Below are positions 23,338 through 48,140 of a stretch of DNA of 64,000 nucleotides, piece after piece. The notes beneath the pieces were generated by a model that was given only the letters and a program-made list of their open reading frames with translations, searched no databases and was not told the DNA's origin. Source of the DNA: Candidatus Caccalectryoclostridium excrementigallinarum (GTDB lineage: Bacteria > Bacillota > Clostridia > Christensenellales > UBA3700). Numbering within the stretch: the first letter of the stretch is position 1; every line of letters begins with the position of its first letter. The stretch is from positions 35,217 to 99,216 of the forward strand of contig DVNJ01000015.1 of assembly GCA_018714485.1 (NCBI GenBank). The letters run 5' to 3'. The position numbers and the translations under genes are program-made.

Positions 23338-23374
23338 AGCCGAAACTCCTCTCTTTTATAGTAATAGCGCAATG

Positions 23375-23404
23375 ATTATAATATAATGCAAAAAGCCTTG
23401 TCAA
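23375..23404 (-). promoter_or_regulatory. promoter of rpmH-rnpA operon
   Basis: Minus-strand TTGACA (23404-23399) - 18 nt - TATAAT (23380-23375). Confidence 0.65.
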
Positions 23405-23429
23405 GCGATTTGAAGACCGCCGCCGCTCC

Positions 23430-23700
23430 CGCCCCGAAAAAATATCCGCCTTACTCGCCGTGCCCAAACTTCAAAAAACATCCGTCCCTTCCGAGCCGAG
23501 CGAACTTTCGGAAAATATCCCCTCGTTCGCCTTTCCCGAAATTCGCAGAAAATTCCGCCTCAACCGCCTTACCCGAAACTTTCGGAAATTTCCCCCTCGC
23601 CCGCTTACCCGAAACTTTCGGGAAATATCCGCTCGCCCGCTTACCCGAAACTTTCAAAAAAACATACTCTTGCTCGCCGTGTCCGAAAGCGGAAAATTTT
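23430..23700. repeat. degenerate tandem array, ~36-bp period, 7-8 units, palindromic CCGAAACTTTCGG core
   Basis: Three best units start exactly at 23569, 23605 and 23641 (TTACCCGAAACTTTCGG.AAATNTCC.CTCGCCCGC). Progressively degenerate units lie on both sides. Confidence 0.85.
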
Positions 23701-23752
23701 CACATTTTGTATATGTTATAACTAATAGTTATTATATTATCCTTTATCCCCC

Positions 23753-23781
23753 TTGCTTTGGCGCGCGCCGTGAGTTATAAT
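23753..23781 (+). promoter_or_regulatory. promoter of the helicase gene
   Basis: TTGCTT (23753-23758) - 17 nt - TATAAT (23776-23781). GAGGAG RBS before ATG 23811. Confidence 0.6.
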
Positions 23782-23810
23782 ATTTTTGAACAAATGTTTG
23801 AGGAGCGAAA

Positions 23811-25955
23811 ATGACTCTCGACGATCTTTTGAAAGGACTGAACAAAGATCAACGCCGAGCCGTGGAGAGCACGGAAGGGCGCGTGCGCGTTGCGGCGGGA
23901 GCGGGCAGCGGAAAGACGCGCGTGCTCACCCTGCGCTATGCCTATATCGTGCAAAAACTCGGCGTCACGCCCGAGCATATACTCTCCGTCACTTTCACGA
24001 ACAAAGCGGCGCGCGAAATGCGCGATCGCATACGCGCGTTGATGCCGGACGGAGACGGCGGCTGGATCCTGACCTTTCACGGCGCCTGCCACAAAATACT
24101 CAAAGAAGAGATAGGCTTTTTCGCCTATCCCGAGAATTTTATGGTAATGGACGAAGAAGATCAAAAGAGCGTTTTACAGCGCATTTTTTCGCAAAAAGGC
24201 TTTACGCTCAAAGATTTTTCCTTCCGCGACTGCATGAACGCGATCGAAGAATATAAGGCTTTTGCCGACTATGTGCCCTTTTTGACCGACGTCAAACGCG
24301 CGCAAAAAACTCCCGCGCTCGATGAAGAGAAAAACAAGCTCGACGCCGTCATCGCCGCCTATCTCGACATGCAGCGCAAAAACTATTGGCTCGACTTTGC
24401 CGACCTGATACAATTCACGCTTTATTTGTTCAAAATAAGCAAAGCCGCTCTGCAAAAATGGCAAAACAAGTTCGAATATGTGCAAATAGACGAATTTCAG
24501 GACGTCTCGGGCGAACAATACAAATTGGCGCGCGCTCTCGCCGGCAAGCATAAAAACCTCTTCATCGTGGGCGATCCCGATCAGACCATCTATTCCTGGC
24601 GCGGCGCAGACGTCGGCTTTTTCAACAACTTCGACAAGTTTTTCGCGGACGCAAAAACCATCGTTCTCGACGAAAATTACCGTTCCACGCCCGAGATCCT
24701 CGCCGTGAGCAACGCGCTGATAAGCAAAAACGAAGACAGGATAGAAAAGTCGCTCAAAGCCACTCGTCCGCACGGCGAAAAACCTCTCTATCATCACGCG
24801 AAGTCGCGGATCGACGAGGCAGACGCGATCGCAAACAAGATCCTCGAGCTGAAAAAGACGGGAGTTTCTCTCTCCGACATCGCCGTTTTATATCGCGGCA
24901 ATTATCTCTCGCGCGTCATCGAGACTTCTTTTGTCAAAAAAGGCGTTCCCTATGTCGTTTTCAGCGGTACGGCGTTTTATCAGCGCAAAGAGATAAAAGA
25001 TGCCCTCGCCTATTTGAGACTGAGCGTTTTCGGCGACGACCTGTCTTTCGAAAGAGTCGTCAACACGCCTCACCGCGGCATAGGCGCGACGCGCCGCTCA
25101 CTCCTGCGCGCTTATGCCGAAGAAAACGGCTGCTCCTTGGCGCAGGCGCTCGGCGCGCTTGCCTTGACTCCCCGCTTCAAGGGAACGGGCGCGGGAGAGC
25201 TTTTGCACTTTTTGATAGACGCACAGGCTTTCGCCGCCGAACACGACCCCGCCGAAACGCTCGACCACGTTTTGCAAAAGAGCGGATACGAAGAGTTTTT
25301 GCGTCTGAGCGGCGGTCAGGACAGATTGGATAATCTGAGCGAATTAAAGGCGTCCGTGCGCGAGTTTGTCGAGTCGGAAGGCGACGACGCGAGCGTTCGC
25401 GACTATCTCAACAGCATATCCCTGCTCACGAGCGCGGACGCGGAAGAGAAGAAAGACTGCGTCAAACTCATGACCGTGCATACGGCAAAGGGCTTGGAAT
25501 TTCCCTATGTGTTCGTTTGCTGCCTGAATGAAGGGCTTTTCCCCTCGCGCAAGATCAAAAACATCGAGGAAATGCAGGAAGAACGCCGCGTCGCCTACGT
25601 CGCATTGACGCGCGCGCAAAAGCGGCTTTTCCTTTCGGACGCGGAAGGCTACGACGCACAAGCGGGCGGCGCAATGTATACCTCGCGCTTTATTTTCGAG
25701 ATCGGAAAAGACCTGCTCCAAACGAGCGGAAGGTTCTCCCTCGGTCATCTCGCGCGCTCGAAAACCTTCATAAGTTCGCATTTGAGCGGCAAAAAAGTCG
25801 AAAAGAGCGGCTTTTCCGTCGGCGAAAAGGTTTTTCACCCCGTTTTCGGCGTCGGCAGCATAGCAAAAGCAGAGGCCGACTCCTATCTCGTCCTGTTCGA
25901 AAGCGGAAAGACGCGCTCCATTGCCGCCACGTCGGACATACTAAAACCGCTCTGA
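23811..25955 (+). CDS. UvrD/PcrA/Rep-family ATP-dependent DNA helicase
   Basis: 714 aa. Walker A AGAGSGKTRVLT, motif II IDEFQD, TVHTAKGLEFPYVFV near the C-terminus. Confidence 0.9.
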   Translation: MTLDDLLKGLNKDQRRAVESTEGRVRVAAGAGSGKTRVLTLRYAYIVQKLGVTPEHILSVTFTNKAAREMRDRIRALMPDGDGGWILTFHGACHKILKEEIGFFAYPENFMVMDEEDQKSVLQRIFSQKGFTLKDFSFRDCMNAIEEYKAFADYVPFLTDVKRAQKTPALDEEKNKLDAVIAAYLDMQRKNYWLDFADLIQFTLYLFKISKAALQKWQNKFEYVQIDEFQDVSGEQYKLARALAGKHKNLFIVGDPDQTIYSWRGADVGFFNNFDKFFADAKTIVLDENYRSTPEILAVSNALISKNEDRIEKSLKATRPHGEKPLYHHAKSRIDEADAIANKILELKKTGVSLSDIAVLYRGNYLSRVIETSFVKKGVPYVVFSGTAFYQRKEIKDALAYLRLSVFGDDLSFERVVNTPHRGIGATRRSLLRAYAEENGCSLAQALGALALTPRFKGTGAGELLHFLIDAQAFAAEHDPAETLDHVLQKSGYEEFLRLSGGQDRLDNLSELKASVREFVESEGDDASVRDYLNSISLLTSADAEEKKDCVKLMTVHTAKGLEFPYVFVCCLNEGLFPSRKIKNIEEMQEERRVAYVALTRAQKRLFLSDAEGYDAQAGGAMYTSRFIFEIGKDLLQTSGRFSLGHLARSKTFISSHLSGKKVEKSGFSVGEKVFHPVFGVGSIAKAEADSYLVLFESGKTRSIAATSDILKPL

Positions 25956-25974
25956 CGGCGCCGCTTTCGGCCGA

Positions 25975-25990
25975 TGTTTCACGTTAAACA
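25975..25990. promoter_or_regulatory. parS-like site (15/16 match to TGTTNCACGTGAAACA)
   Basis: TGTTTCACGTTAAACA, 20 nt after the helicase stop. Single mismatch at position 11. Confidence 0.55.
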
Positions 25991-26184
25991 ATCGAAAATA
26001 AAACGTCATCGCCGACAATAATATCAGGACAATTATTCCTGTCGGGAATATCGGACCCAGCCAATTTATCCGTTCGGCTAATTGTTTTGCGTCAACGCAA
26101 AGATTTGCAACGAGAGTCTCGTGCGCGTAATTATTACGCGCATAACATATAAAACCGCCCTTTTTCGCAAAAAAAACACAGCAA

Positions 26185-26310
26185 CAGCCGTATTCAAAAA
26201 TACAGACCGATCATGACTGCCGAAAAGCCGCACGCGCAGCCGTACTCAAAAAATACAAATCGATCACGGCTTCCGAAAAAGCCGCGCGCACAGCCGTACT
26301 CAATACCCGC
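26185..26310. repeat. tandem repeat, ~53-bp unit x2.4
   Basis: CAGCCGTAYTCAAAAA(A)TACA.A.CGATCA.G.CT.CCGAAAAGCCGC.CGC. units at 26185-26236 and 26237-26290, with a partial unit from 26291. Confidence 0.85.
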
Positions 26311-26673
26311 AAAACAATTACGCTCGCTAAAAATACAGCAAGCAGCATCATGCTTAAAAAAACCAATATTGCCCCATTCTCAGATAAGGCAATTAAAAAA
26401 CCGAAACTGTTTTTACCCGATGCCGTCGAGCGCTCGCAAGGCTTATCCGGATCAAATTCAACGCTTTCGGCATTATCCCGCCCTTGCCAAGCGTTGCTTT
26501 TGCCAACAAGCACGCCCTTGCCGAACGACTTACAAAGTACGACTCGCCTCTCTTCCGACGCCACCCTATTGCCGCACCCCGAGCAACAGCCCGTCCTTAA
26601 AAGCGTTTTGTCGCCACCGCCGCATTACAGCTATGCAGCCTGTTAGGATCGCCTTGGCGTTTACACCCCGAAG

Positions 26674-26925
26674 TTAATATAAAACCCCTTTTTCTGTCGG
26701 AAAATATCTTTCGTAATCCTCATCCGTAAGCGGTGTGCCGCGCTCTATCGCTTCCTCACACATTTTCTTGAAGTCGTCATTGCCTATATCATAAGGCATA
26801 GTTATAGGTATCATCGGATAATCTCCGAATTTTTCCTTATAATGCTCATAGTAAGCGGTAAACTCTTCTTTTGGTTGCGCCTTGACACTTTTTTTAAGCT
26901 TTTCGATATTCACTTTTTTCATCAT
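26674..26925 (-). CDS. hypothetical 83-aa protein (no family recognised)
   Basis: The only convincing ORF in the 4.3-kb island. Balanced composition (MMKKVNIEKLKKSVKAQPKEEFTAYYEHYKEKFGDYPMIPI...), GGAGAG RBS and its own consensus-like promoter. Confidence 0.6.
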   Translation of the reverse strand: MMKKVNIEKLKKSVKAQPKEEFTAYYEHYKEKFGDYPMIPITMPYDIGNDDFKKMCEEAIERGTPLTDEDYERYFPTEKGVLY

Positions 26926-26977
26926 TCTGCTCTCCTTACTTTTATTTCACTATACCCCTTTTTTGTCTTCCGATTTA

Positions 26978-27006
26978 ATTTTATCTTGCCCGACAAACAA
27001 TGTCAA
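26978..27006 (-). promoter_or_regulatory. promoter of the 83-aa ORF
   Basis: Minus-strand TTGACA (27006-27001) - 17 nt - TAAAAT (26983-26978). Confidence 0.6.
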
Positions 27007-27229
27007 TACCCCTCTGCAACACGCCGCGCAAGTAATGTTTGCTCTTTTTCTACCGTAAGCAAGCCCGAACGCTCGGCTTTCAAACTTGTCGAACCTCTTC
27101 GAGACCTCGATCTAATAAGCCAAAACGCTATTTTTCTTGCCACACTTCGCCCCGCCTCTTTTCGATCACACGCCGCTCACATCGATCGACAAGCCTTTTT
27201 CACCGCTTTGAGCGCAGTTGAGCAATGAT

Positions 27230-28470
27230 CGCCACAAAAAGCTCGCAAACGAGCGATATTTCGCCTTTTTATTGCCGCCGGGAATACCGCCCTCATTATT
27301 ACCGCAAGCATTCGCGGCTTTTATAAACACTTTTTAACTTTAAGCGAGCGCTTCTGCATAAAGTGCCTTGCATTCAAAAGCTTTGACCGCAGTTCCGCGC
27401 CTTGCCCTTACACCGCGCACATCACCTCTTAAACACCTTGCTCAATACTCACCGCCACTTAAACGCATTATCACAACCATTATTATGCGCGCCAATATAA
27501 CTTGATCTGTTGCCCCACCCCAAACGCAATCGCCCACCATGTTCTTAAATCGCCCGACAGCCTTTTCGAGCGCAATAGTAAAAGATCTCGCAAAATCGCA
27601 ACAGCCTCTTGCTGCGCGAAAAAGCTCGAAAAGTGTCACGTGAAACATTTTCCGCGAATTAAATCACAAGCACTTCGCCCGTATCTGCCCGCCGACACCG
27701 ACCACGTCAAGGAAATCGACACGAGCGCCGACAGCGCCTCTTTTAATGCTCCCCGATCGTCGGCGCCGTTCACGCCGCCACAAGCAGTCTATTGCGCTTC
27801 ACGCCGTTGCAGGCAATCCCTTGTGCCACAACAACAGCCTCGGGATGCCGCGACCAAAAACCGCCTCGATCTTATCGAAATACGAGTAATTAGAGCAAAG
27901 CGATCAAAACAGCCAACACGGCGCACTCAATAGAAAAAGCGCGACTATAAGCAGCACGCAAGACATATCACCCGAAGTCAAACAAAATCGATAACTGCAC
28001 TATAAACAAACGCTCGTCTCCGCGACTAACGGCGCAAAAAAGCGGTCGAACACTTAAATAACTCAAAAAACCTAAAACCTCTTGCCGCAGGAAACCTCAA
28101 AAGCAAAAACATAAAGCCGCAGCGGCAGGCAACTTCAACAGCGCAAAATCAAAATGACCCGTAAACCGCAAACATAAACGCGCAAAAAGCACGCAAAGCC
28201 ATAAGCACGACGCCGTAACAGCGATAACGAACGATCGGGATCTCGAACAGGAGCGAATATCATAACAACACACAAACCCATAAGCGTAGAGGCACAGGAA
28301 CATGCAAAGCCATAAACATAACGCCACAAAGACAGCGCGATCGAACCGGATCCGCGAACAGATCGATACGGACGAAAGCACCGCCGAACGCCAGACGCGC
28401 ACCACGACCGCCGCAAAGACCGAAAAGCCGCTTTCGGCACGCCCGATCGAAGCCTTTCGCGGCTTGTTTT
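27230..28470. other. T-depleted A+C-rich non-coding block with degenerate ~106-111-bp repeats
   Basis: My hand count for 28141-28440 is 25 T and 66 G out of 300 nt (about 70% A+C). GCAAAGCCATAA..ACGCC..GATCG...GAACAG recurs at 28193 and 28304. All ORFs here translate to low-complexity strings. Confidence 0.7.
27632..27647. promoter_or_regulatory. parS-like site (14/16)
   Basis: AGTGTCACGTGAAACA. Perfect right half-site CACGTGAAACA, two mismatches in the left arm. Confidence 0.45.
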
Positions 28471-28568
28471 TTCGTCGCTTTGAAAATGTTTCCCGTGTAA
28501 CAATTTTTGCTCGATTTTAGAAGTTTTTTGTCGATTTTTCCGTTTTTTGAGAATTTTTGCGTCTTTTT
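28467..28568. other. helically phased T-tract block (predicted intrinsically curved DNA)
   Basis: T5-T6 runs start at 28504, 28515, 28524, 28535, 28543, 28554 and 28564 (spacings 11, 9, 11, 8, 11, 10). My count gives 33 T in the 60 nt 28501-28560. Confidence 0.7.
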
Positions 28569-28652
28569 AATAACTGATAGTTGTCGCAATCGACTTGGAT
28601 TTTCTCGAAATTTTCGCAAAATTACAGGCAATTGTCGGCAATTTATTTTTAT

Positions 28653-28675
28653 TGTTTCACGCGATTTGTGAAACA
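28653..28675. other. split parS-like palindrome
   Basis: TGTTTCAC (28653-28660) - GCGATTT - GTGAAACA (28668-28675). Both 8-bp parS half-sites are perfect but separated by 7 nt. Confidence 0.4.
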
Positions 28676-29176
28676 GTTTTTAGCCGATTTTCTTCTCTTG
28701 TTTTTGCCTTTGCCGTCGCCCCTTGTGCAAAAAGCTCTTTTTACCGCGAAAATATCCTTTTCAACCACGTCGCATCGCTCTGCCCGGGCAAAACGGCAGG
28801 ACCACGCAGCGATCGCGTTCGCGCGATATGCGCATATGCTACGGAGCGGCGCAACATGCTTGCAAAGGCATTCTCCCGCGCTTTCTCGCACACGCGCACA
28901 ACCGCGAAGACACGGAACGCCTTTTCTCTCTTGAGCGCGCTTTTCGAGCAATTTGCGCATATTGCAAGCGGTTTTGCGACGATCCCGTCTTGCCCCGTTC
29001 ACACCAACGCACATTATGCGCGCGTGCGTTACTGCGCACGTTCCGATGCGCCCACCCGCTGCGGAGCAGCCGCATTTGCTTTGCAAAAATGCGTCGAACC
29101 TTTCTCTCTCCAAGGCTCAAAAAGCGCGATCGTCCATCATATTTTGCCAAAAACGACGTTCCCATGTCGTTTTCGA

Positions 29177-29233
29177 CGGCACGGCGTTTTGTCGGTACGG
29201 CGTTTTGTCGGTACGGAGTTTTGTCGGTGCCGG
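29177..29233. repeat. 16-bp tandem repeat x3.5
   Basis: CGGYACGGMGTTTTGT at 29177, 29193 and 29209, with a partial unit from 29225. Confidence 0.85.
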
Positions 29234-29361
29234 AAGACAAGACTCCTTTTTCGCGTATTTTATCGAGAGATCCGGATAGCGATCCGTGCGCGCCGTCTCA
29301 AACGGCTGTTTTTGCCGCTATTTCGGGCTTTGCCGCGCGCATCGTTTCTTCCCCCGTCTGC

Positions 29362-29391
29362 GGGCGTATTTCGAAAAATACGCGCCTTTTT
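29362..29391 (+). terminator. terminator-like hairpin inside the non-coding island
   Basis: GCGTATTT (29364-29371) - CGAA - AAATACGC (29376-29383), extended by GG/CC around a bulge, followed by TTTTT (29387-29391). No upstream gene is assigned. Confidence 0.35.
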
Positions 29392-30054
29392 CGCGCTCTG
29401 AACACGTTCCGAGAAGTTATCGCCGTGACAGCGACACATATCCGAAGACCTTTCTTTCCGCCTTTGCGGCTTTTGACCCAAGGTTTCAAAGCTCGTCCGC
29501 AACTCTACGCGCGCGCGTTGTTCCGCTTGGTTCGCCGCCCCGCAAACCGCCGTCGACCTTTTGACTTTCGCTCCGAGCAAGCAATGCAGACTTCTCGAAC
29601 TTATGTTGCTCCGAGGTTTTTACCGCAACACTCCCTCAAAAACGCCTTCTTGTGGCATTTTTGTCGAAAATTTCTCTTCGCAAAGTCCTCTTGCGTTCAT
29701 GCCTTCCCGCACGCACCGACGCATTATGCGCACGCAAGACCGTCCGCAAAAAGCCCGTCGAGCCGCGATCTTGCGCGAAACTTTTTGTCGACCGCCGCTC
29801 GGGTTTGCGTTTGCGCATTATGCGCGCGCGTATTATGCGATCCCGACCCGACGGCGGCAAAGGTTTTTTATCGTTTTTTCGTATGCTTTCTCGCGCGTAT
29901 ATGCGAGAGTGTTCGCGCTCATGTGTGTAATATTTTTATTATAATATATGTTTGATTGTTTTATGCACTTTTATCTTATACGCGATATTTTCGCTTTTAT
30001 TTAGCATTTTTTCTTCTTTTCTTGCGCCGTTTTCCCGCAATTATCCGCGCGTTT

Positions 30055-31086
30055 TTAGTGCACATAATATACATGTTTTGGCGGCTGACTCTTTTTTATC
30101 TTATTCCCGCGCCCACCGCTCGGATAAGATCGAAGGCATTCGGGTTTTCTTTTCCGCATTACATGTGAGACGCTTTGGCGCTTTGCGTTTTTTCGCCGTT
30201 TCCGTATGCACCTCGGGCGACATCTGTGGGTCAGACCATCGCTCTCAACACGTCTTTTATATCCTCGGCAAAAGAAAGCGTCTTTTTGGCGTTTTCGGGA
30301 CATGGCGCCCGGGTATTGCGCATTTATGCGAACGAGGACCGCGTCTTTATTTTTATACGTCATCGCTTCGAACGGAAAACGAATTATCGTCGGCGTATTG
30401 TATCCCACACCGAGCTCCAAAAGCAGCAGCTTCCTGTCGCGAGCCTCACGGCAGAAAATCTCATATCGGCGTTCCGCCTCATACCACGCCTTGTCTTGCA
30501 CAAAATATGCGTCTTTGCGGATATTAACCTCCATATCTTTGCCGCATACGGGGCATTTTGGAATGAGAGCGGAAGGAATGCGGCAGTCTTTCTGCTCCGC
30601 CGCCATTTTTCGAACGAGATCTTCGTTGTCATACAGTTCGTCATGGCAGCCCTTGGCGCATTGCAGCTTTCCGTAGTCGCCCTGCACGGCAAAGATGCGC
30701 TCTGTCGCAAATCCCGCCTTATAAAACTGCGCGTCCACGTTGGTGGTGACGACAAAAAAGTCCTTATCCTTGACGAGTTCAAAAAGCCTTCGATAGAGCG
30801 GCAATGCGGGCGGCAGCCGGCGGTTCAGCAAAATATGCCGCGACCAATACGCCCATTTTTCTTCCTGCGTCTTGAAGGGATAAAATCCCGCCGAATACAT
30901 ATCCGACATGCCGTATTTTTTGATAAAATCGCCGAAGTTTTCCGTAAAACGCTGCCCGGAATAAGTAAGCCCCGCCGCAGATGAAAGCCCCGAACCGCCA
31001 CCGATGAGCACGCATTCCGCCTCGTCGAGAAGGGAACGCAGCTTATCGATCCTGCCTGAAAAGCTCTCTGTCATATAACGCTTCAT
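30055..31086 (-). CDS. SIR2-family protein, macrodomain-linked SirTM-like; 3' end apparently frameshifted (possible pseudogene)
   Basis: GGGSGLSSAAGL NAD loop, TTNVDAQFYKAGF, zinc-ribbon CAKGC...CPVCG. Likely start ATG 31072-31074. After INAQYP the in-frame tail is 84 aa of Arg/Lys-rich junk, whereas another frame reads PENAKKTLSFAEDIKDVLRAMV and stops at 30231-30233. Confidence 0.75.
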   Translation of the reverse strand: MKRYMTESFSGRIDKLRSLLDEAECVLIGGGSGLSSAAGLTYSGQRFTENFGDFIKKYGMSDMYSAGFYPFKTQEEKWAYWSRHILLNRRLPPALPLYRRLFELVKDKDFFVVTTNVDAQFYKAGFATERIFAVQGDYGKLQCAKGCHDELYDNEDLVRKMAAEQKDCRIPSALIPKCPVCGKDMEVNIRKDAYFVQDKAWYEAERRYEIFCREARDRKLLLLELGVGYNTPTIIRFPFEAMTYKNKDAVLVRINAQYPGAMSRKRQKDAFFCRGYKRRVESDGLTHRCRPRCIRKRRKNAKRQSVSHVMRKRKPECLRSYPSGGRGNKIKKSQPPKHVYYVH

Positions 31087-31810
31087 CCTCCTTCAAAAAC
31101 ACGTTGAAAATAACTTTTAGCGGGTTGCCCGTCTCCGCCTTCCATTGTTTGACCATCTGTACGGCAAGGCGGCAGGCTTCGTCTTTGGGGTAACGGTATT
31201 CGCCCGTGGAAATGCAGCAAAAGGCGAGAGAGGAAAGTTTCATCTCCGCCGCCATATTCAGGCAGGAGAGATAGCAGCTTTTAAGGTCGCGGCGGTTTTG
31301 CTCTGTCACGCCGCCATAGACGATGGGACCTACGATATGGAAAATATAGCGCGAAGGCAGGTTATATGCCTTGGTCACTTTCACCCGACCGTTCGGCTCT
31401 TCGCCGCCGCGCATGATAGCGTTGCAATCGAGGCGCACCTGAACGCCCGCCGCGGAATGTATGACGTTGTCGATACAGTTATGCAGAGGATGAAAGCAGC
31501 CCAGGAGCGCGGAATTGCAGGCATTGACGACGGCGTCCGCATTCAGCCGCGTGATGTCGCCCCGCCATAAGGCAATGCCGTCCCGATAAACAAATCCGTT
31601 TACATCGACTATGCCGCGCTCTTTTGTCCTTTCGGGGAGATACTCGTCCTGCAAGCGCAAAAATTCTTTCGTTGCGGGCATGGGCGGGCGCACATTGCAA
31701 AGCGCCCGGAAAAAATCGGGCTTTTGTTCATACGAAAGGGACGGTACGGCTTCGCCGCGCTCCTCGCAGAGAATTTGTATCAACCTGTCGAGAATTTTAT
31801 TTTGCGTCAT
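31043..31810 (-). CDS. macro-domain protein (ADP-ribose / protein-ADP-ribose hydrolase type)
   Basis: ORF 31043-31855. WRGDITRLNADAVVNACNSALLG...HSAAG...FCCISTGEYRYP macro motifs. Start set to ATG 31808-31810 (MTQNK) after AAAGGAGAG. 3' end overlaps the sirtuin start. Confidence 0.85.
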   Translation of the reverse strand: MTQNKILDRLIQILCEERGEAVPSLSYEQKPDFFRALCNVRPPMPATKEFLRLQDEYLPERTKERGIVDVNGFVYRDGIALWRGDITRLNADAVVNACNSALLGCFHPLHNCIDNVIHSAAGVQVRLDCNAIMRGGEEPNGRVKVTKAYNLPSRYIFHIVGPIVYGGVTEQNRRDLKSCYLSCLNMAAEMKLSSLAFCCISTGEYRYPKDEACRLAVQMVKQWKAETGNPLKVIFNVFLKEDEALYDRELFRQDR

Positions 31811-31896
31811 AAGAGTCTCTCCTTTATGTTCGATATTGCCCGCCAAAGCACGCAAGCGCGATCGAAACGACCGCGCCCACCCGCTATATGCTTATA

Positions 31897-32118
31897 TTAC
31901 TTTCCGATCACGGAAAAGCGCTTCTGAATATTGTTTGCGTTTTCAATCTCGTCGATCATGGCGATGGCGTAGTCGGCATAGCTTATGCGGCTCTCGCCCT
32001 TGGTGTTGACAAAATACTCCTCATCACCGATGAATACGCATTCCGCGGCTTTCAAAAGCGACCGCAGCTTTTCAACTCTTTCTTGTAAGTTATTTTGCTT
32101 GTTGTTCATAGCCTTCAA
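31897..32118 (-). pseudogene. chimeric gene remnant: SirTM-like 5' fragment fused to the 3' end of an NAD(P)H-binding (flavin-reductase/NmrA-like) gene
   Basis: Residues ERVEKLRSLLKAAECVFIG match the neighbouring sirtuin N-terminus GRIDKLRSLLDEAECVLIG (GCGGAATGCGTNNTCATCGGTG nearly identical at nt level). The rest, NTKGESRISYADYAIAMIDEIENANNIQKRFSVIGK, looks like the C-terminus of NAD(P)H-binding reductases. Confidence 0.55.
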
Positions 32119-32161
32119 AAACCGCGAGGCGCGGATCAGACAAGATCTTGCCTCGCTTTGT

Positions 32162-32518
32162 TCAATTGGAAACGACGCCGTCGTTCATGGTGTACCCTTC
32201 CAGTGATCCCGCCTTTACTTGAATACATATATACTTTAACGCCGTTTTTTCAGAAGCAAAGAACTGCCTTTTGGCTTCGGGAGAAATACGCAACCAGTCA
32301 CCTGCCTTTACGCGAATATTTTCGCCGTCTATAACGACAGCGCCTTCACCCTCGACGATCGCATAGATCTCTTCGTTCTGCTTATGAGAATGGACGAAGG
32401 GAACGCACCCTCCTGCCGGCAAAATATTGATGCTGATCTCCGCGCCTGTAAGACCGAGCTTGTCATGCAGTTCGGTGCGTGCTTCTTCCGATGTGCCAAT
32501 TTTGCTGTAATTTTTCAT
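32162..32518 (-). CDS. cupin domain protein
   Basis: ORF 32162-32533. PAGGCVPFVHSHKQNEEIYAIVEGEG cupin motif. Start set to ATG 32516-32518 after GGAGGT. Confidence 0.75.
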   Translation of the reverse strand: MKNYSKIGTSEEARTELHDKLGLTGAEISINILPAGGCVPFVHSHKQNEEIYAIVEGEGAVVIDGENIRVKAGDWLRISPEAKRQFFASEKTALKYICIQVKAGSLEGYTMNDGVVSN

Positions 32519-32710
32519 GATACATACCTCCAAGAAATTTTGATTTGGTAACCTTTGCGATTACGGGCACAGTATAGCAAACGCGGAAAATTTTTTCTCG
32601 GAAGTTACTTTTCTATTATTTGATAATAGATTTGTTGCTTAGTTTCTTTTTTGAACCATTGACTTTTTAAGGCTCTTTTGCTATTATAAAAGAAAAAAGG
32701 AGCGCACTTT

Positions 32711-33037
32711 ATGCTGACAAAAGAAGAATTGCCCGAATGCCCCGTGGCGACGACGGTACAGCTCATCGGCAATAAATGGAAACTGCTTATTTTGCGCAAT
32801 CTCATCTATAACGGAGCGCAGCGATTCACCGATTTTCCCAAGACCATTCCCGGCATCAGCAAAAAGGTGCTGACGGACAATCTGCGCGCGCTGGAGAGCG
32901 ACGGGCTTGTCGAACGCGAAGTATTTGCGGAAGTTCCGCCGCGCGTCGTCTATTCTTTGTCCGACCTCGGCAAAACATTGAAACCTATCCTTGACGCCAT
33001 GTTCGATTGGGGAACGGATTACAAAAACAGATTATAG
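32711..33037 (+). CDS. HxlR-family transcriptional regulator
   Basis: 108 aa. CPVATTVQLIGNKWKLLILRNL...RVVYSLSDLGKTL is the HxlR signature. Divergent from the cupin gene. TTGACT-17-TATTAT promoter upstream. Confidence 0.9.
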   Translation: MLTKEELPECPVATTVQLIGNKWKLLILRNLIYNGAQRFTDFPKTIPGISKKVLTDNLRALESDGLVEREVFAEVPPRVVYSLSDLGKTLKPILDAMFDWGTDYKNRL

Positions 33038-33203
33038 TTATTCAAAGAAGCATACGGGCGGTTTTTTAACGCCTCAACTTTTTTCACGCTGAAATTTTCT
33101 CTCGCGCGAAAGATTTTGCCGAAAAGCACTTCGCGCTTTACTTCCGTGAATTTTTCGTCATAAAAAGAGCGGCTCGCGCCGCCCCTTGTCGCGCTTTTCC
33201 GCG

Positions 33204-46387: not shown

Positions 46388-46564
46388 TTATTTACCTCCT
46401 TGTCCTATAAAGCCTCGCACGCATAATATAACGTGCGCGCATACGCATATATTATAGTTATTTAATCCATTATATCACAAAAAAAAGTCAAAGGCAAGAA
46501 AATGAGGAAGAGTTGCTCATATCGTTTTTTTTGACGCAAATAACGCGCCTAAATTGATTTTTTA

Positions 46565-46592
46565 ATGAAAAACGCGCCCTTTATCGGGCGCT
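46565..46592 (-). terminator. intrinsic terminator after dnaN
   Basis: GCGCCC (46574-46579) - 6-nt loop - GGGCGC (46586-46591). On the minus strand it is followed by GUUUUUC. Confidence 0.7.
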
Positions 46593-46618
46593 CCGTCGTT
46601 TTTTTTATTTAATTTTTC

Positions 46619-47740
46619 TCAATATCTGATCGGCAGCAACAGATAGACATATTTTTCCTCTTCGTTTTCGTTGACCGGCTCGATGATGAAGGGAGCGGTC
46701 GGGCTGTTGAGAGACATGTTCACGAATTCGCCGTCGCAGTTTTTGAGTACGTCGATGATGAACTTACAGTTGAGAAGAAGGACGACGTCTTTTCCCTTGC
46801 TGTATATCTTGATCATATCGCTTATCTCGCCTATGCTCGAAGACGCGCGCACGTTCATTATCCCGTCTTTTACTTCCACTTTGACCATGCTCGACTTGTC
46901 GTAGCGCGTCATGACCGCGGCTCTGTCGAGGCTGACGAGGAGCTGCTTGCTGTTCACGGTCAGCTTTGTTTCGTAAGCGGAAGGGATAGTCCTGGCGTAA
47001 TCGAGGAATTTTCCCGAAAGCAGGTTGGACGTGACTTTGGTATGTTCGCCGATGCAGACGGAAAAACGCTTGGAAGAGAAATAAAGCGTCGTGGAATCCT
47101 CTTCGTTTTCCATCATTCTCGCCACTTCGTTGAGCGTCTTGACGGGCACGACTGCCTGTATGGCGTCGTATTCCGCGGGCAGCTTATAGCTCGCCACCGC
47201 CATTCTGTAACCATCGAGGGCGACGACGTTCATGTCCGAACCCTTTATGTCGAAAAGGCAGCCTTTGAACTGCGGTCTGCTGTCGTCGGTCGCGGCGGAG
47301 AAAGAGGTCTTTTCTATCAGCCTTTTGAGATCCTTTTGCGGAATGTTGAAACTTATCTCGTAATCTTCCTCTCCGCCCGTCAAAGGCACGAAATCTTCCA
47401 GCCTGAACTTGCTCAGCTGCGCTTCGTTATCCATATATTTGATATGTATGATGTCCTCTTCGATGCTGTAAATATCCACTTGAGCGCCGCTGTCTATCCT
47501 CTTTACTATCTCATACATATATTTTCCCGGAATGAGGACCTCTCCTTCCTCCTGGACCACTGCGCGAATGGAATTTTCTATCTCGTATTCCATGTCGTTG
47601 GCGGTGAGGGTGACCTTGTCGCCGTAAGCGCTCATTTTGATCCCGTCGTTGTTGACGCCTATCATGACTTTGGAAGGAAGAGCTCTCGTGACCTTTGCCA
47701 AAGCGTCGGTGAGATCGAGAACGTCGCATATGATCTTCAT
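46619..47740 (-). CDS. dnaN: DNA polymerase III subunit beta (sliding clamp)
   Basis: 373 aa. Three-domain clamp length, typical N-terminus (MKIICDVLDLTDALAKVTRALPSK) and C-terminal YLLLPIRY-type ending. Adjacent to gyrB. Confidence 0.9.
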   Translation of the reverse strand: MKIICDVLDLTDALAKVTRALPSKVMIGVNNDGIKMSAYGDKVTLTANDMEYEIENSIRAVVQEEGEVLIPGKYMYEIVKRIDSGAQVDIYSIEEDIIHIKYMDNEAQLSKFRLEDFVPLTGGEEDYEISFNIPQKDLKRLIEKTSFSAATDDSRPQFKGCLFDIKGSDMNVVALDGYRMAVASYKLPAEYDAIQAVVPVKTLNEVARMMENEEDSTTLYFSSKRFSVCIGEHTKVTSNLLSGKFLDYARTIPSAYETKLTVNSKQLLVSLDRAAVMTRYDKSSMVKVEVKDGIMNVRASSSIGEISDMIKIYSKGKDVVLLLNCKFIIDVLKNCDGEFVNMSLNSPTAPFIIEPVNENEEEKYVYLLLPIRY

Positions 47741-47769
47741 AATAATACCTCTTATATTTTATCTTTTTT

Positions 47770-47798
47770 ATTATACCACAAAACGCTTTTTCCGTCAA
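47770..47798 (-). promoter_or_regulatory. promoter of dnaN
   Basis: Minus-strand TTGACG (47798-47793) - 17 nt ending in TGg - TATAAT (47775-47770). AAGAGGT RBS. Confidence 0.65.
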
Positions 47799-47890
47799 GC
47801 CATAAATGCTCGAGCGGCGCCCCTTTTTATTTTCGTAATTTGTCGGATAAGCTCGGCGCTTTATATAGACATTTATTTTTTTATATATTT

Positions 47891-48038
47891 GTTGGATAAC
47901 AATATTTCGAATAAATACCCGTTGAAAAGTGGATAACTCAGCTTTTTCGTTTTATGAGTTAAAAAGAAGGGGAAAAAGACAGTTTATTTCCGTGTAAAAA
48001 TCCCTTTGAAAGGAAAAAATTATCCCCGTTTATCAACA
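47891..48038. promoter_or_regulatory. DnaA-box cluster in AT-rich dnaN-upstream intergenic region (putative oriC segment)
   Basis: Matches to TTATCCACA: TTATCCACT (rc of 47928-47936, 8/9), TTATCAACA (48030-48038, 8/9), TTATCCAAC (rc of 47891-47899, 7/9), TTATCCCCG (48020-48028, 7/9). Confidence 0.5.
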
Positions 48039-48140
48039 TAAGAGAAAAATATGGCGAAAAAAAGCGGCTGAAAAGTCTTTCTTTTTCGAAAAAGGCGGGC
48101 GAAAAACATAATTTTTTTCAGGCTAAACATACTGCTTTTA

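Follow-up and report, generated by a model that had tools for sequence, protein, structure and literature searches.

What occupies more than 4 kb of bacterial DNA that seems to hold a single small gene? The question is raised by a 64,000-nt stretch of contig DVNJ01000015.1 of Candidatus Caccalectryoclostridium excrementigallinarum (here called the window), in which a non-coding island, assigned to neither strand, extends from the stop codon of a helicase gene to the true stop codon of a sirtuin gene (25956-30230). An earlier note on this DNA, made from its letters alone, considered three hypotheses: a centromere-like or nucleoid-organizing region, one or more large non-coding RNAs, or a heavily decayed mobile element. 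We lean, at little better than even confidence, toward a narrowed form of the first, in which the core of the island would be an origin-proximal ParB/parS centromere cluster, set in degenerate minisatellite DNA that is mostly unconstrained. The kind of element is already known; the surprise is its setting.

The evidence begins with three 16-mers in each of which 14-15 of the 16 positions agree with the chromosomal parS consensus. Searching the window with the consensus TGTTTCACGTGAAACA, and permitting up to three mismatches, returned three matches, at 25975, 27632 and 28487, all of them in the island, where shuffles gave an expectation of 0.18; unrelated loci totaling 1.40 Mb yielded four matches, or 0.012 per 4.3 kb. 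None of the sites is assigned a strand. The first (parS1, TGTTTCACGTTAAACA, 25975-25990) lies 20 nt past the helicase stop codon and differs from TGTTTCACGTGAAACA at one position; the second (parS2, AGTGTCACGTGAAACA, 27632-27647) has two mismatches; the third (parS3, TGTTTCCCGTGTAACA, 28487-28502) has the reverse complement TGTTACACGGGAAACA, with one mismatch to TGTTNCACGTGAAACA. Against TGTTNCACGTGAAACA, the mismatch counts of the three are 1, 2 and 1-2. The near-consensus parS sites announced in the earlier note are thus three in number and are the only matches in 64 kb.

The sites are also conserved where their surroundings are not. The window corresponds to the ENA metagenome contig ERZ27280457 k141_399016 (locus L084; 100% identity over 15 kb), and together with six further loci from independent metagenome assemblies (L083, L091, L099, L102, L104 and L106) it forms a set of seven variants. 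The flanking core genes of the six are 93-98% identical, and their islands are 84-94% identical to one another. All three parS 16-mers are identical in 7/7 variants, whose islands differ by 6-16%. Across the seven, 64% of island columns are invariant, but only 2.9% of island 16-mers are, and the joint chance that all three parS 16-mers would be invariant is ~2.5e-5 if the sites are taken as independent. Two of the six longest invariant runs contain a site: parS2 lies in the run 27625-27650, a local conservation peak, and parS3 in the longest run of all, 67 nt of the seven-variant alignment (28476-28542, no strand). By comparison, a split parS-like inverted repeat, TGTTTCAC-GCGATTT-GTGAAACA (28653-28675, no strand), is not invariant and reads GTGGAACA in two variants.

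One site reaches beyond the species. In the locus L094, from another species whose helicase is 68% identical at the protein level, parS1 and five flanking bases are identical, while the DNA downstream cannot otherwise be aligned to the island. For 0.9 kb or more after parS1, the L094 DNA is non-coding, rich in A and C and tandemly repeated, with strand skews like those of the island (L094:12167-13078). A metagenome scan with a 17-mer of parS1 retrieved 120 unrelated loci, the pattern being too generic for such a search. The L094 repeats measure ~170 bp by eye and contain a recurring CACAGAATAT motif; the contig ends ~200 bp farther on, past a 66-aa open reading frame (ORF).

How far are the sites from the replication origin? 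The GC skew of the window is negative to ~47 kb and positive past 48 kb, with a cumulative minimum at 46-48 kb. The minus-strand gene dnaN occupies 46619-47740, and upstream of it comes an AT-rich stretch of 400 bp with several DnaA-box-like sequences (47.8-48.1 kb). Because the skew minimum and these sequences both lie near dnaN, oriC is probably at 46388-48140, ~20 kb from the island, which would put the three sites 19-22 kb away. The origin-type landmarks named in the earlier note are both present, rpmH being at ~23.2-23.3 kb on the other side of the island. The island itself was rejected as oriC: it lacks a DnaA-box cluster, with no match to TTATCCACA within one mismatch and a single match to the relaxed TTWTNCACA at 28724. 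The candidate sites thus combine a consensus match, an origin-proximal location and purifying selection.

The gene order of the origin region is scrambled. On the minus strand it reads dnaN-gyrB-gyrA, where gyrB and gyrA are named from ORF size and position only, and a RecF-like SMC_N/AAA protein is encoded with gidA and gidB on the plus strand, 10 kb from the dnaN region. The rpmH-helicase intergenic region (23341-23810), the classical rpmH-side position of oriC, contains four 36/37-bp tandem repeats (23503-23655) and has a strong C>G skew of -0.28; the sequence and copy number of these repeats differ between strains, and the region has no DnaA boxes and no adjacent dnaA.

Work on other bacteria has established the parS consensus TGTTNCACGTGAAACA, the origin-proximal clustering of parS, the spreading of ParB and the loading of SMC (PMC7022226; PMC4536313). 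By analogy, we infer ParB binding, sliding and SMC loading at the candidate sites. ParB (Spo0J) dimers would nucleate at the three 16-bp palindromes and load as cytidine triphosphate (CTP)-dependent sliding clamps, building over roughly the whole island one partition complex, whose roles would be segregation of the origin region and loading of SMC-condensin. The sites are closely spaced in the window, at 1.66 kb and 0.86 kb, so that all three fall within 2.5 kb; among all variants the parS2-parS3 distance is stable (827-855 bp) and the parS1-parS2 distance varies (1657-1947 bp).

The DNA at parS3 has a further peculiarity. Between parS2 and parS3 lies an A/C-rich, T-depleted block (27850-28420, plus strand; A 41%, C 29%, G 19%, T 10.7%), whereas T makes up 45% of 28476-28720, and around parS3 the AT skew changes sign within ~100 bp, from +0.6 to -0.27. 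Adjoining parS3 are seven tracts of at least four T (28504-28570, plus strand), the first of which share its 67-nt invariant block. They lie at 28504, 28515, 28524, 28535, 28543, 28554 and 28564, with spacings of 8-11 bp, and are phased at ~10-10.5 bp: the best Fourier period is 10.5 bp, with a power of 2.08 compared with a mean shuffle maximum of 0.43, a value reached in 0/500 shuffles. The abrupt switch from an A+C block to a T-rich, helically phased one, remarked on in the earlier note, is therefore real. Phasing near 10.5 bp predicts an intrinsic bend. With an A-rich arm on one side of parS3 and a phased T-tract arm on the other, such a static bend may favor assembly of the partition complex.

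Between these anchors the sequence turns over quickly. Every variant has the island; the segment used for alignment (window 25700-30100, starting 256 nt inside the helicase gene) measures 4.26-4.58 kb. The island diverges by 10-13.5% between the window and the other variants, in a patchy, mosaic pattern and with many indels, compared with 3-10% at fourfold-degenerate sites of yidC, the helicase, a trypsin-like protease and gidA. Most of the indels consist of repeat units, among them one of 53 bp and a 16-bp unit present in 2-5 copies. The other variants also carry an extra 50-265 bp of C/A-rich, repeat-like sequence at ~27.15 kb, two have a further 209 bp, in two blocks (126 and 83 bp), around 26.6 kb, and three have a 201-bp deletion at 28733-28933. 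The spacers, probably neutral, would be mostly strand-skewed, degenerate tandem repeats that expand, contract and recombine, which would explain both the high divergence and the indels of the island.

If ParB does bind here, the locus marks the chromosomal centromere of an uncultured, Christensenellales-like gut lineage and is a landmark for the organization of the origin domain in such genomes. Invariant parS sites within DNA that turns over faster than synonymous sites would also make a useful calibration for comparative detection of binding sites. The persistence of ~4 kb of gene-free, repeat-rich DNA around parS, despite deletion bias, could bear on whether transcription-free flanks aid ParB sliding or SMC loading.

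Several points weigh against a parS cluster. None of its three sites is a perfect consensus match. No parA, parB or dnaA was found among the scanned ORFs of the 64-kb window, so a cognate ParB is only assumed. The spacers, as described, diverge faster than the fourfold sites of the flanking genes and vary by repeat-unit indels. Since parS sites commonly lie inside genes, a cluster by itself does not account for a gene-free 4 kb. Finally, the invariant blocks could be conserved for some other reason, for example as promoters or operators. Each of the rival explanations that we weighed is weaker than the parS-cluster reading.

The last objection has a specific form, in which the palindromes are operators of some other helix-turn-helix protein, such as a Noc-type ParB paralogue or a local regulator. 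Each site does deviate from the parS consensus, and the CCCG core of parS3 (TGTTTCCCGTGTAACA) presumably recalls Noc-binding sites. The extent of the consensus match nevertheless argues for parS, as does clustering near the origin, which is seen in many bacteria. No regulator gene is adjacent to the island, and to our knowledge Noc is known from Bacillales and not from Clostridia. We consider an operator function to have only a slender chance of being right, slightly below that of the RNA explanation weighed further on.

Comparison with known chromosomal centromeres places the candidate cluster more precisely. Among Bacillota, Bacillus subtilis has 10 chromosomal parS sites and Streptococcus pneumoniae four, and those of B. 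subtilis are dispersed over the origin domain (PMC4536313). The island resembles both in its 16-bp palindromes, in their 14-15/16 match and in lying near the origin, and departs from B. subtilis in having three sites within 2.5 kb, in 4.3 kb of gene-free DNA with no parAB genes nearby. The B. subtilis sites are mostly inside genes. Compact clusters are found in other phyla, namely Pseudomonas aeruginosa (parS1-4), Corynebacterium glutamicum (10 sites), Myxococcus xanthus (22 sites) and Streptomyces coelicolor (PMC7022226, PMC4368675). These are closely spaced near oriC, as in the island, and form one large nucleoprotein complex. Ordinary genes surround or contain these sites, as a rule with parAB not far off, and we know of no description of such a cluster embedded in kilobases of hypervariable, strand-skewed repeat DNA.

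Might the whole 4.3 kb, rather than its core, be the functional unit? The island would then be a "regional" centromere, a transcription-poor ParB-loading platform selected for length, composition and curvature, with skewed arms mirrored around parS3 and a primary sequence that turns over by repeat expansion and contraction. There is a loose parallel with eukaryotic regional centromeres, which keep their function while their repeats change. We rate this extended version as distinctly unlikely. Of the centromere-like or nucleoid-organizing region proposed in the earlier note, what holds is the parS component, invariant, origin-proximal and in one case shared across species; nothing implicates the other ~4 kb.

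Apart from one small gene, the island is real non-coding DNA. A dicodon model trained on the window genes gives a negative coding signal in all six frames over 25.9-30.2 kb and a clearly positive one over the helicase, sirtuin, macro-domain and other genes; the one weak exception (26650-26900, minus strand) lies over an ORF of 83 aa. In a score-based gene map of the window the island appears as gaps of 718 bp and 3129-3305 bp. The next-largest uncalled gaps are 943, 799 and 676 bp, all others being <1 kb, and of these the 943-bp gap contains a MazG-domain ORF and the 676-bp gap contains gidB, by synteny. The description of the surroundings as tightly packed is roughly right, yet intergenic gaps of 200-600 bp are common in the window.

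Nor do the longer ORFs of the island look like genes. In the seven-way alignment, those of 410, 154, 143, 123 and 72 aa are each interrupted by stops or frameshifts in two or more of the other variants, and they lack codon periodicity. Among the remaining stop-free frames of at least 30 codons, none apart from the 83-aa ORF is open in 7/7 variants or has a codon-position bias, and reassigning any single stop codon to sense opens no large ORF in the island. A phmmer search with the 410-aa ORF against 1.84 billion proteins gave 25 matches of 79-359 aa; of the six inspected, five were translations of homologous island DNA and one was an unrelated low-complexity repeat. Six-frame scans of the island produced a single sub-threshold Pfam match (MC3, E ~1e-3, spanning stop codons) and zero PHROGs matches, and tblastn of the helicase against the island recovered only a 53-nt fragment. 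We thus reject protein-coding genes and recent pseudogenes as the content of the island, given broken frames and no family similarity, with the 83-aa ORF as sole exception. This bears out the earlier claim that 25956-30230 supports that gene only, and the search for decayed ORFs that the note called for yielded no recognizable pseudogene beyond the 53-nt piece. Mis-assembly is also not the explanation, since six contigs, each from a different sample, share the structure at 99.8-100% identity.

A gene-free island of this kind could be neutral leftover DNA in a plasticity zone, made of the long-decayed residue of inserted and deleted genes together with expanding minisatellites. It would then serve no purpose as a unit, and the parS-like palindromes and other conserved blocks would be incidental or conserved only locally, for instance through the promoter and terminators of adjacent genes. 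Such a zone does adjoin the island: genes are gained and lost between strains, the sirtuin is frameshifted, and there are both a 73-aa deletion relic with an apparently horizontally acquired segment and, in the island itself, the helicase fragment. Varying repeat copy numbers, indels of up to 201 bp and divergence above that of flanking fourfold sites fit as well. Against a neutral origin, six-frame translation reveals no recognizable pseudogene fragment beyond the 53-nt piece, and the island, already unrecognizable in the ancestor of variants ~13% apart, has kept a similar length in all of them. Bacteria have a deletion bias, which makes such persistence unexpected if the island is neutral. 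It is also very unlikely that three invariant, consensus-like parS sites, one of them shared across species, are incidental. On balance we regard neutral leftover DNA as an unlikely answer, while giving it some weight.

Large non-coding RNAs are another known reason for long gene-free DNA; OLE, ROOL, GOLLD and HEARO RNAs explain unusually long gene-free stretches in Bacillota, as such an RNA would here. Structured RNA of that sort finds no support in the island, which is several times longer and lacks a family, a stability signal and covariation. Rfam searches matched no family at gathering thresholds, and at E<=10 none of the matches was credible. Fold z-scores in sliding 150-nt windows average near zero, falling below -2.5 in 3/58 windows, and are positive in the A/C block, which is thus less structured than shuffled sequence. 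RNAalifold, applied to 28690-29960 (a third of the island, eight sequences), returned a covariation term of +2.77, where positive values penalize, and 8/239 pairs with a compensatory double change. Alignment z-scores from column shuffles, which do not preserve dinucleotides, lay slightly below zero for both strands, which is what DNA palindromes would produce. We therefore rejected a structured large non-coding RNA, one of the three hypotheses of the earlier note.

An unstructured version of this idea deserves separate consideration. The island would then yield one or more long, largely unstructured non-coding RNAs, with the conserved blocks as promoters and terminators; candidate transcripts are an A/C-rich one on the plus strand ending at 28450-28472, and a second running from the T-rich block to a terminator-like site at 29914-29937. 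Terminator-like sites are indeed enriched in the island (20, compared with 8.4 +/- 3.7 in shuffles), and two of them, the minus-strand site 27241-27254 and the plus-strand site 28450-28465, do not vary. The phased T-tract block could be curved DNA upstream of a promoter, and the strong strand asymmetry is compatible with long-term transcription. Promoter-like sites, on the other hand, are not enriched (7, compared with 4.7 +/- 2.3), the only strong one belonging to the 83-aa ORF; the sequence between anchors is poorly conserved, and the negative structural results above count here too. We think RNAs of this kind very unlikely, for either candidate transcript.

The third hypothesis, a heavily decayed mobile element, likewise found no support in DNA or translated searches, despite the neighboring plasticity zone. 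Blastn of the island against phage and plasmid collections gave no match, and no tRNA, integrase domain or flanking direct repeats were found in the island; a prophage, integrative and conjugative element or plasmid remnant was rejected for want of DNA or protein similarity to mobile elements. A subtler possibility is the relic of an integrated plasmid or phage maintenance module, comprising a partition site, iteron-like repeats and an AT-rich bend, from which rep, par and integrase genes have been lost. Plasmid centromeres include the F sopC array (12 x 43 bp) and P1 parS with its IHF-induced bend, and the island resembles them in having ParB-type palindromes next to direct-repeat arrays (families of 16, 53/54 and ~111 bp) and AT-rich bent DNA. 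Its 83-aa gene also seems mobile, occurring elsewhere beside an array of clustered regularly interspaced short palindromic repeats (CRISPR) and zeta-toxin genes. Unlike sopC and P1 parS, the island has repeats without palindromes whose copy numbers drift freely, a bend that would be intrinsic to its T-tracts, and no plasmid or phage homology. Moreover, the palindromes fit the chromosomal parS consensus and not a plasmid-specific one, no DnaA-box cluster accompanies the repeats, there are no PHROGs or Pfam matches, and the small ORF is absent from viral contigs. A maintenance-module relic seems to us the least probable of the explanations considered.

The 83-aa gene itself (26674-26925, minus strand) encodes an acidic protein of no assigned function and is the only real gene of the island. 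It is open in 7/7 variants, with variable sites distributed 22/16/43 over the three codon positions (p=6e-4; seven variants). An AAGGAG ribosome-binding site precedes its ATG, and a promoter-like site, TTGACA-17-TAAAAT (26978-27006, minus strand; 11/12 matches), lies in a region that is 74-88% invariant. Homologues of the protein form 23 clusters (56-95% local identity), and it belongs to no Pfam family; its AlphaFold model is poor, with a predicted local distance difference test (pLDDT) of 58, and no homologues were found in viral contigs. In another genome, a 90% identical homologue is found next to a type I-C CRISPR array, at its trailer end (L097:10001-11100), where homology to the window is limited to the ORF and ~40 bp on either side. 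Another, 56% identical, adjoins genes for a zeta toxin and an HD-domain protein (L103:3183-3386). Because it is found in unrelated contexts elsewhere, this looks like a small mobile gene that happens to sit in the island. An anti-defense role is only a guess, and we found nothing that ties the gene to parS function.

Of three unrelated tandem-repeat families listed in the earlier note, the 53/54-bp and 16-bp families were borne out, while the "106-111 bp" family proved to be a degenerate two-copy repeat. The first (26184-26303, plus strand) has 2.3 copies, one unit of which is missing in all other variants. The second (CGTTTTGTCGGTACGG, 29168-29228, plus strand) has 3.8 copies here and derives, by amplification, from the 3' part of the helicase fragment (29142-29193, plus strand), which matches an internal part of the helicase gene (24929-24981) at 85% identity and is present in the other variants too. 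The degenerate repeat (28190-28362, plus strand) pairs 28190-28251 with 28301-28362 at a spacing of 111 bp, with an alignment score of 39 compared with 19 +/- 2.8 in shuffles; related short repeats are also present. A CRISPR array was rejected, since whole units repeat in the 53/54-bp and 16-bp arrays and the only Rfam CRISPR match scores 27.8 bits against a threshold of 48; the type I-C array of L097 is quite unlike the island repeats.

The word TTTTGTCG, also singled out earlier, is over-represented, with seven copies in the island and 12 in the window compared with 4.25 expected, but we rejected it as a motif: the 16-bp repeat accounts for three of the copies, and several of the rest are not kept from one variant to the next. 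The strongest single-sequence fold signal of the island (z=-3.4) comes from CGCGTAATTATTACGCG (26122-26142), a 21-bp palindrome that is close to perfect; 3/7 variants have single-base changes in its otherwise invariant core.

Invariant runs of at least 22 nt number six: 28476-28542, 28412-28441, 28678-28705, 29956-29982, 27625-27650 and 27237-27259. Outside the parS runs, 28412-28441 is a hairpin, CCGAAA-AGCCGC-TTTCGG, followed by a terminator-like hairpin and T-run at 28450-28472 (the whole feature spanning 28412-28472, plus strand). The run 27237-27259 (minus strand), upstream of the promoter of the 83-aa gene, is a terminator-like hairpin, GCTCG-TTTG-CGAGC, followed by TTTTT. The 27-nt run 29956-29982 (no strand, no function assigned) lies to the right of a conserved, AT-rich palindrome that contains TATAAT. 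The island is organized, as the earlier note held, insofar as the parS sites, the bent block and the 83-aa gene promoter serve as anchors; the copy-number-variable repeats look unconstrained.

On the left, the flanking helicase is of the UvrD/PcrA type. A search of GTDB species representatives with it found no relative above 40% identity; in a large protein collection the closest named relative is Candidatus Borkfalkia avistercoris (64% identity), Borkfalkia belonging to the Clostridia, order Christensenellales. This fits an uncultured, Christensenellales-like organism, and the samples are of animal or human gut. More distant helicase orthologues (P0025, and P0032 of Ca. Borkfalkia avistercoris) lie in other contexts, of ordinary gene density.

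On the right, the island meets a SirTM-type sirtuin (30055-31086, minus strand; PDB 5a3a, E=4e-62) that is frameshifted after about residue 262, giving an ORF of 343 aa with an aberrant tail. The intact form in L099 has 284 aa, and comparison with it puts the true C-terminus near 30231, confirming the right boundary that the earlier note had drawn at the frame-corrected stop. Because a long sirtuin ORF (339 or 343 aa) is called in all five other near-identical assemblies, the frameshift appears to be a real mutation. A separate 3.5-kb contig from another sample (L229:2525-3574) joins a MatE gene and a truncated N-terminus, which by eye resembles choloylglycine hydrolase with no Pfam match on record, to island DNA corresponding to 28835-29591; the junction, at ~28835, falls inside the segment deleted in three variants and reflects either a rearrangement or a chimeric assembly.

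The region to the right of the island is, on comparison of strains, clearly a strain-variable plasticity zone. The 3.1 kb that carry the sirtuin, macro-domain, cupin and HxlR genes (30083-33162) are absent in type B strains (L083, L087 and L088), and other variants have an extra PNPOx/Fer4 or NAD_binding_10 gene there. A 73-aa ORF (31897-32118, minus strand) is a deletion relic: its N-terminus resembles that of the sirtuin, and the 3' end of a NAD_binding_10 gene, intact in L102 and L106, makes up its C-terminal half. The NAD_binding_10 piece is 90% identical at the DNA level to Ca. Borkfalkia avistercoris (L095:12243-12369), compared with only 71% between the helicases, and this disparity suggests a recent horizontal transfer.

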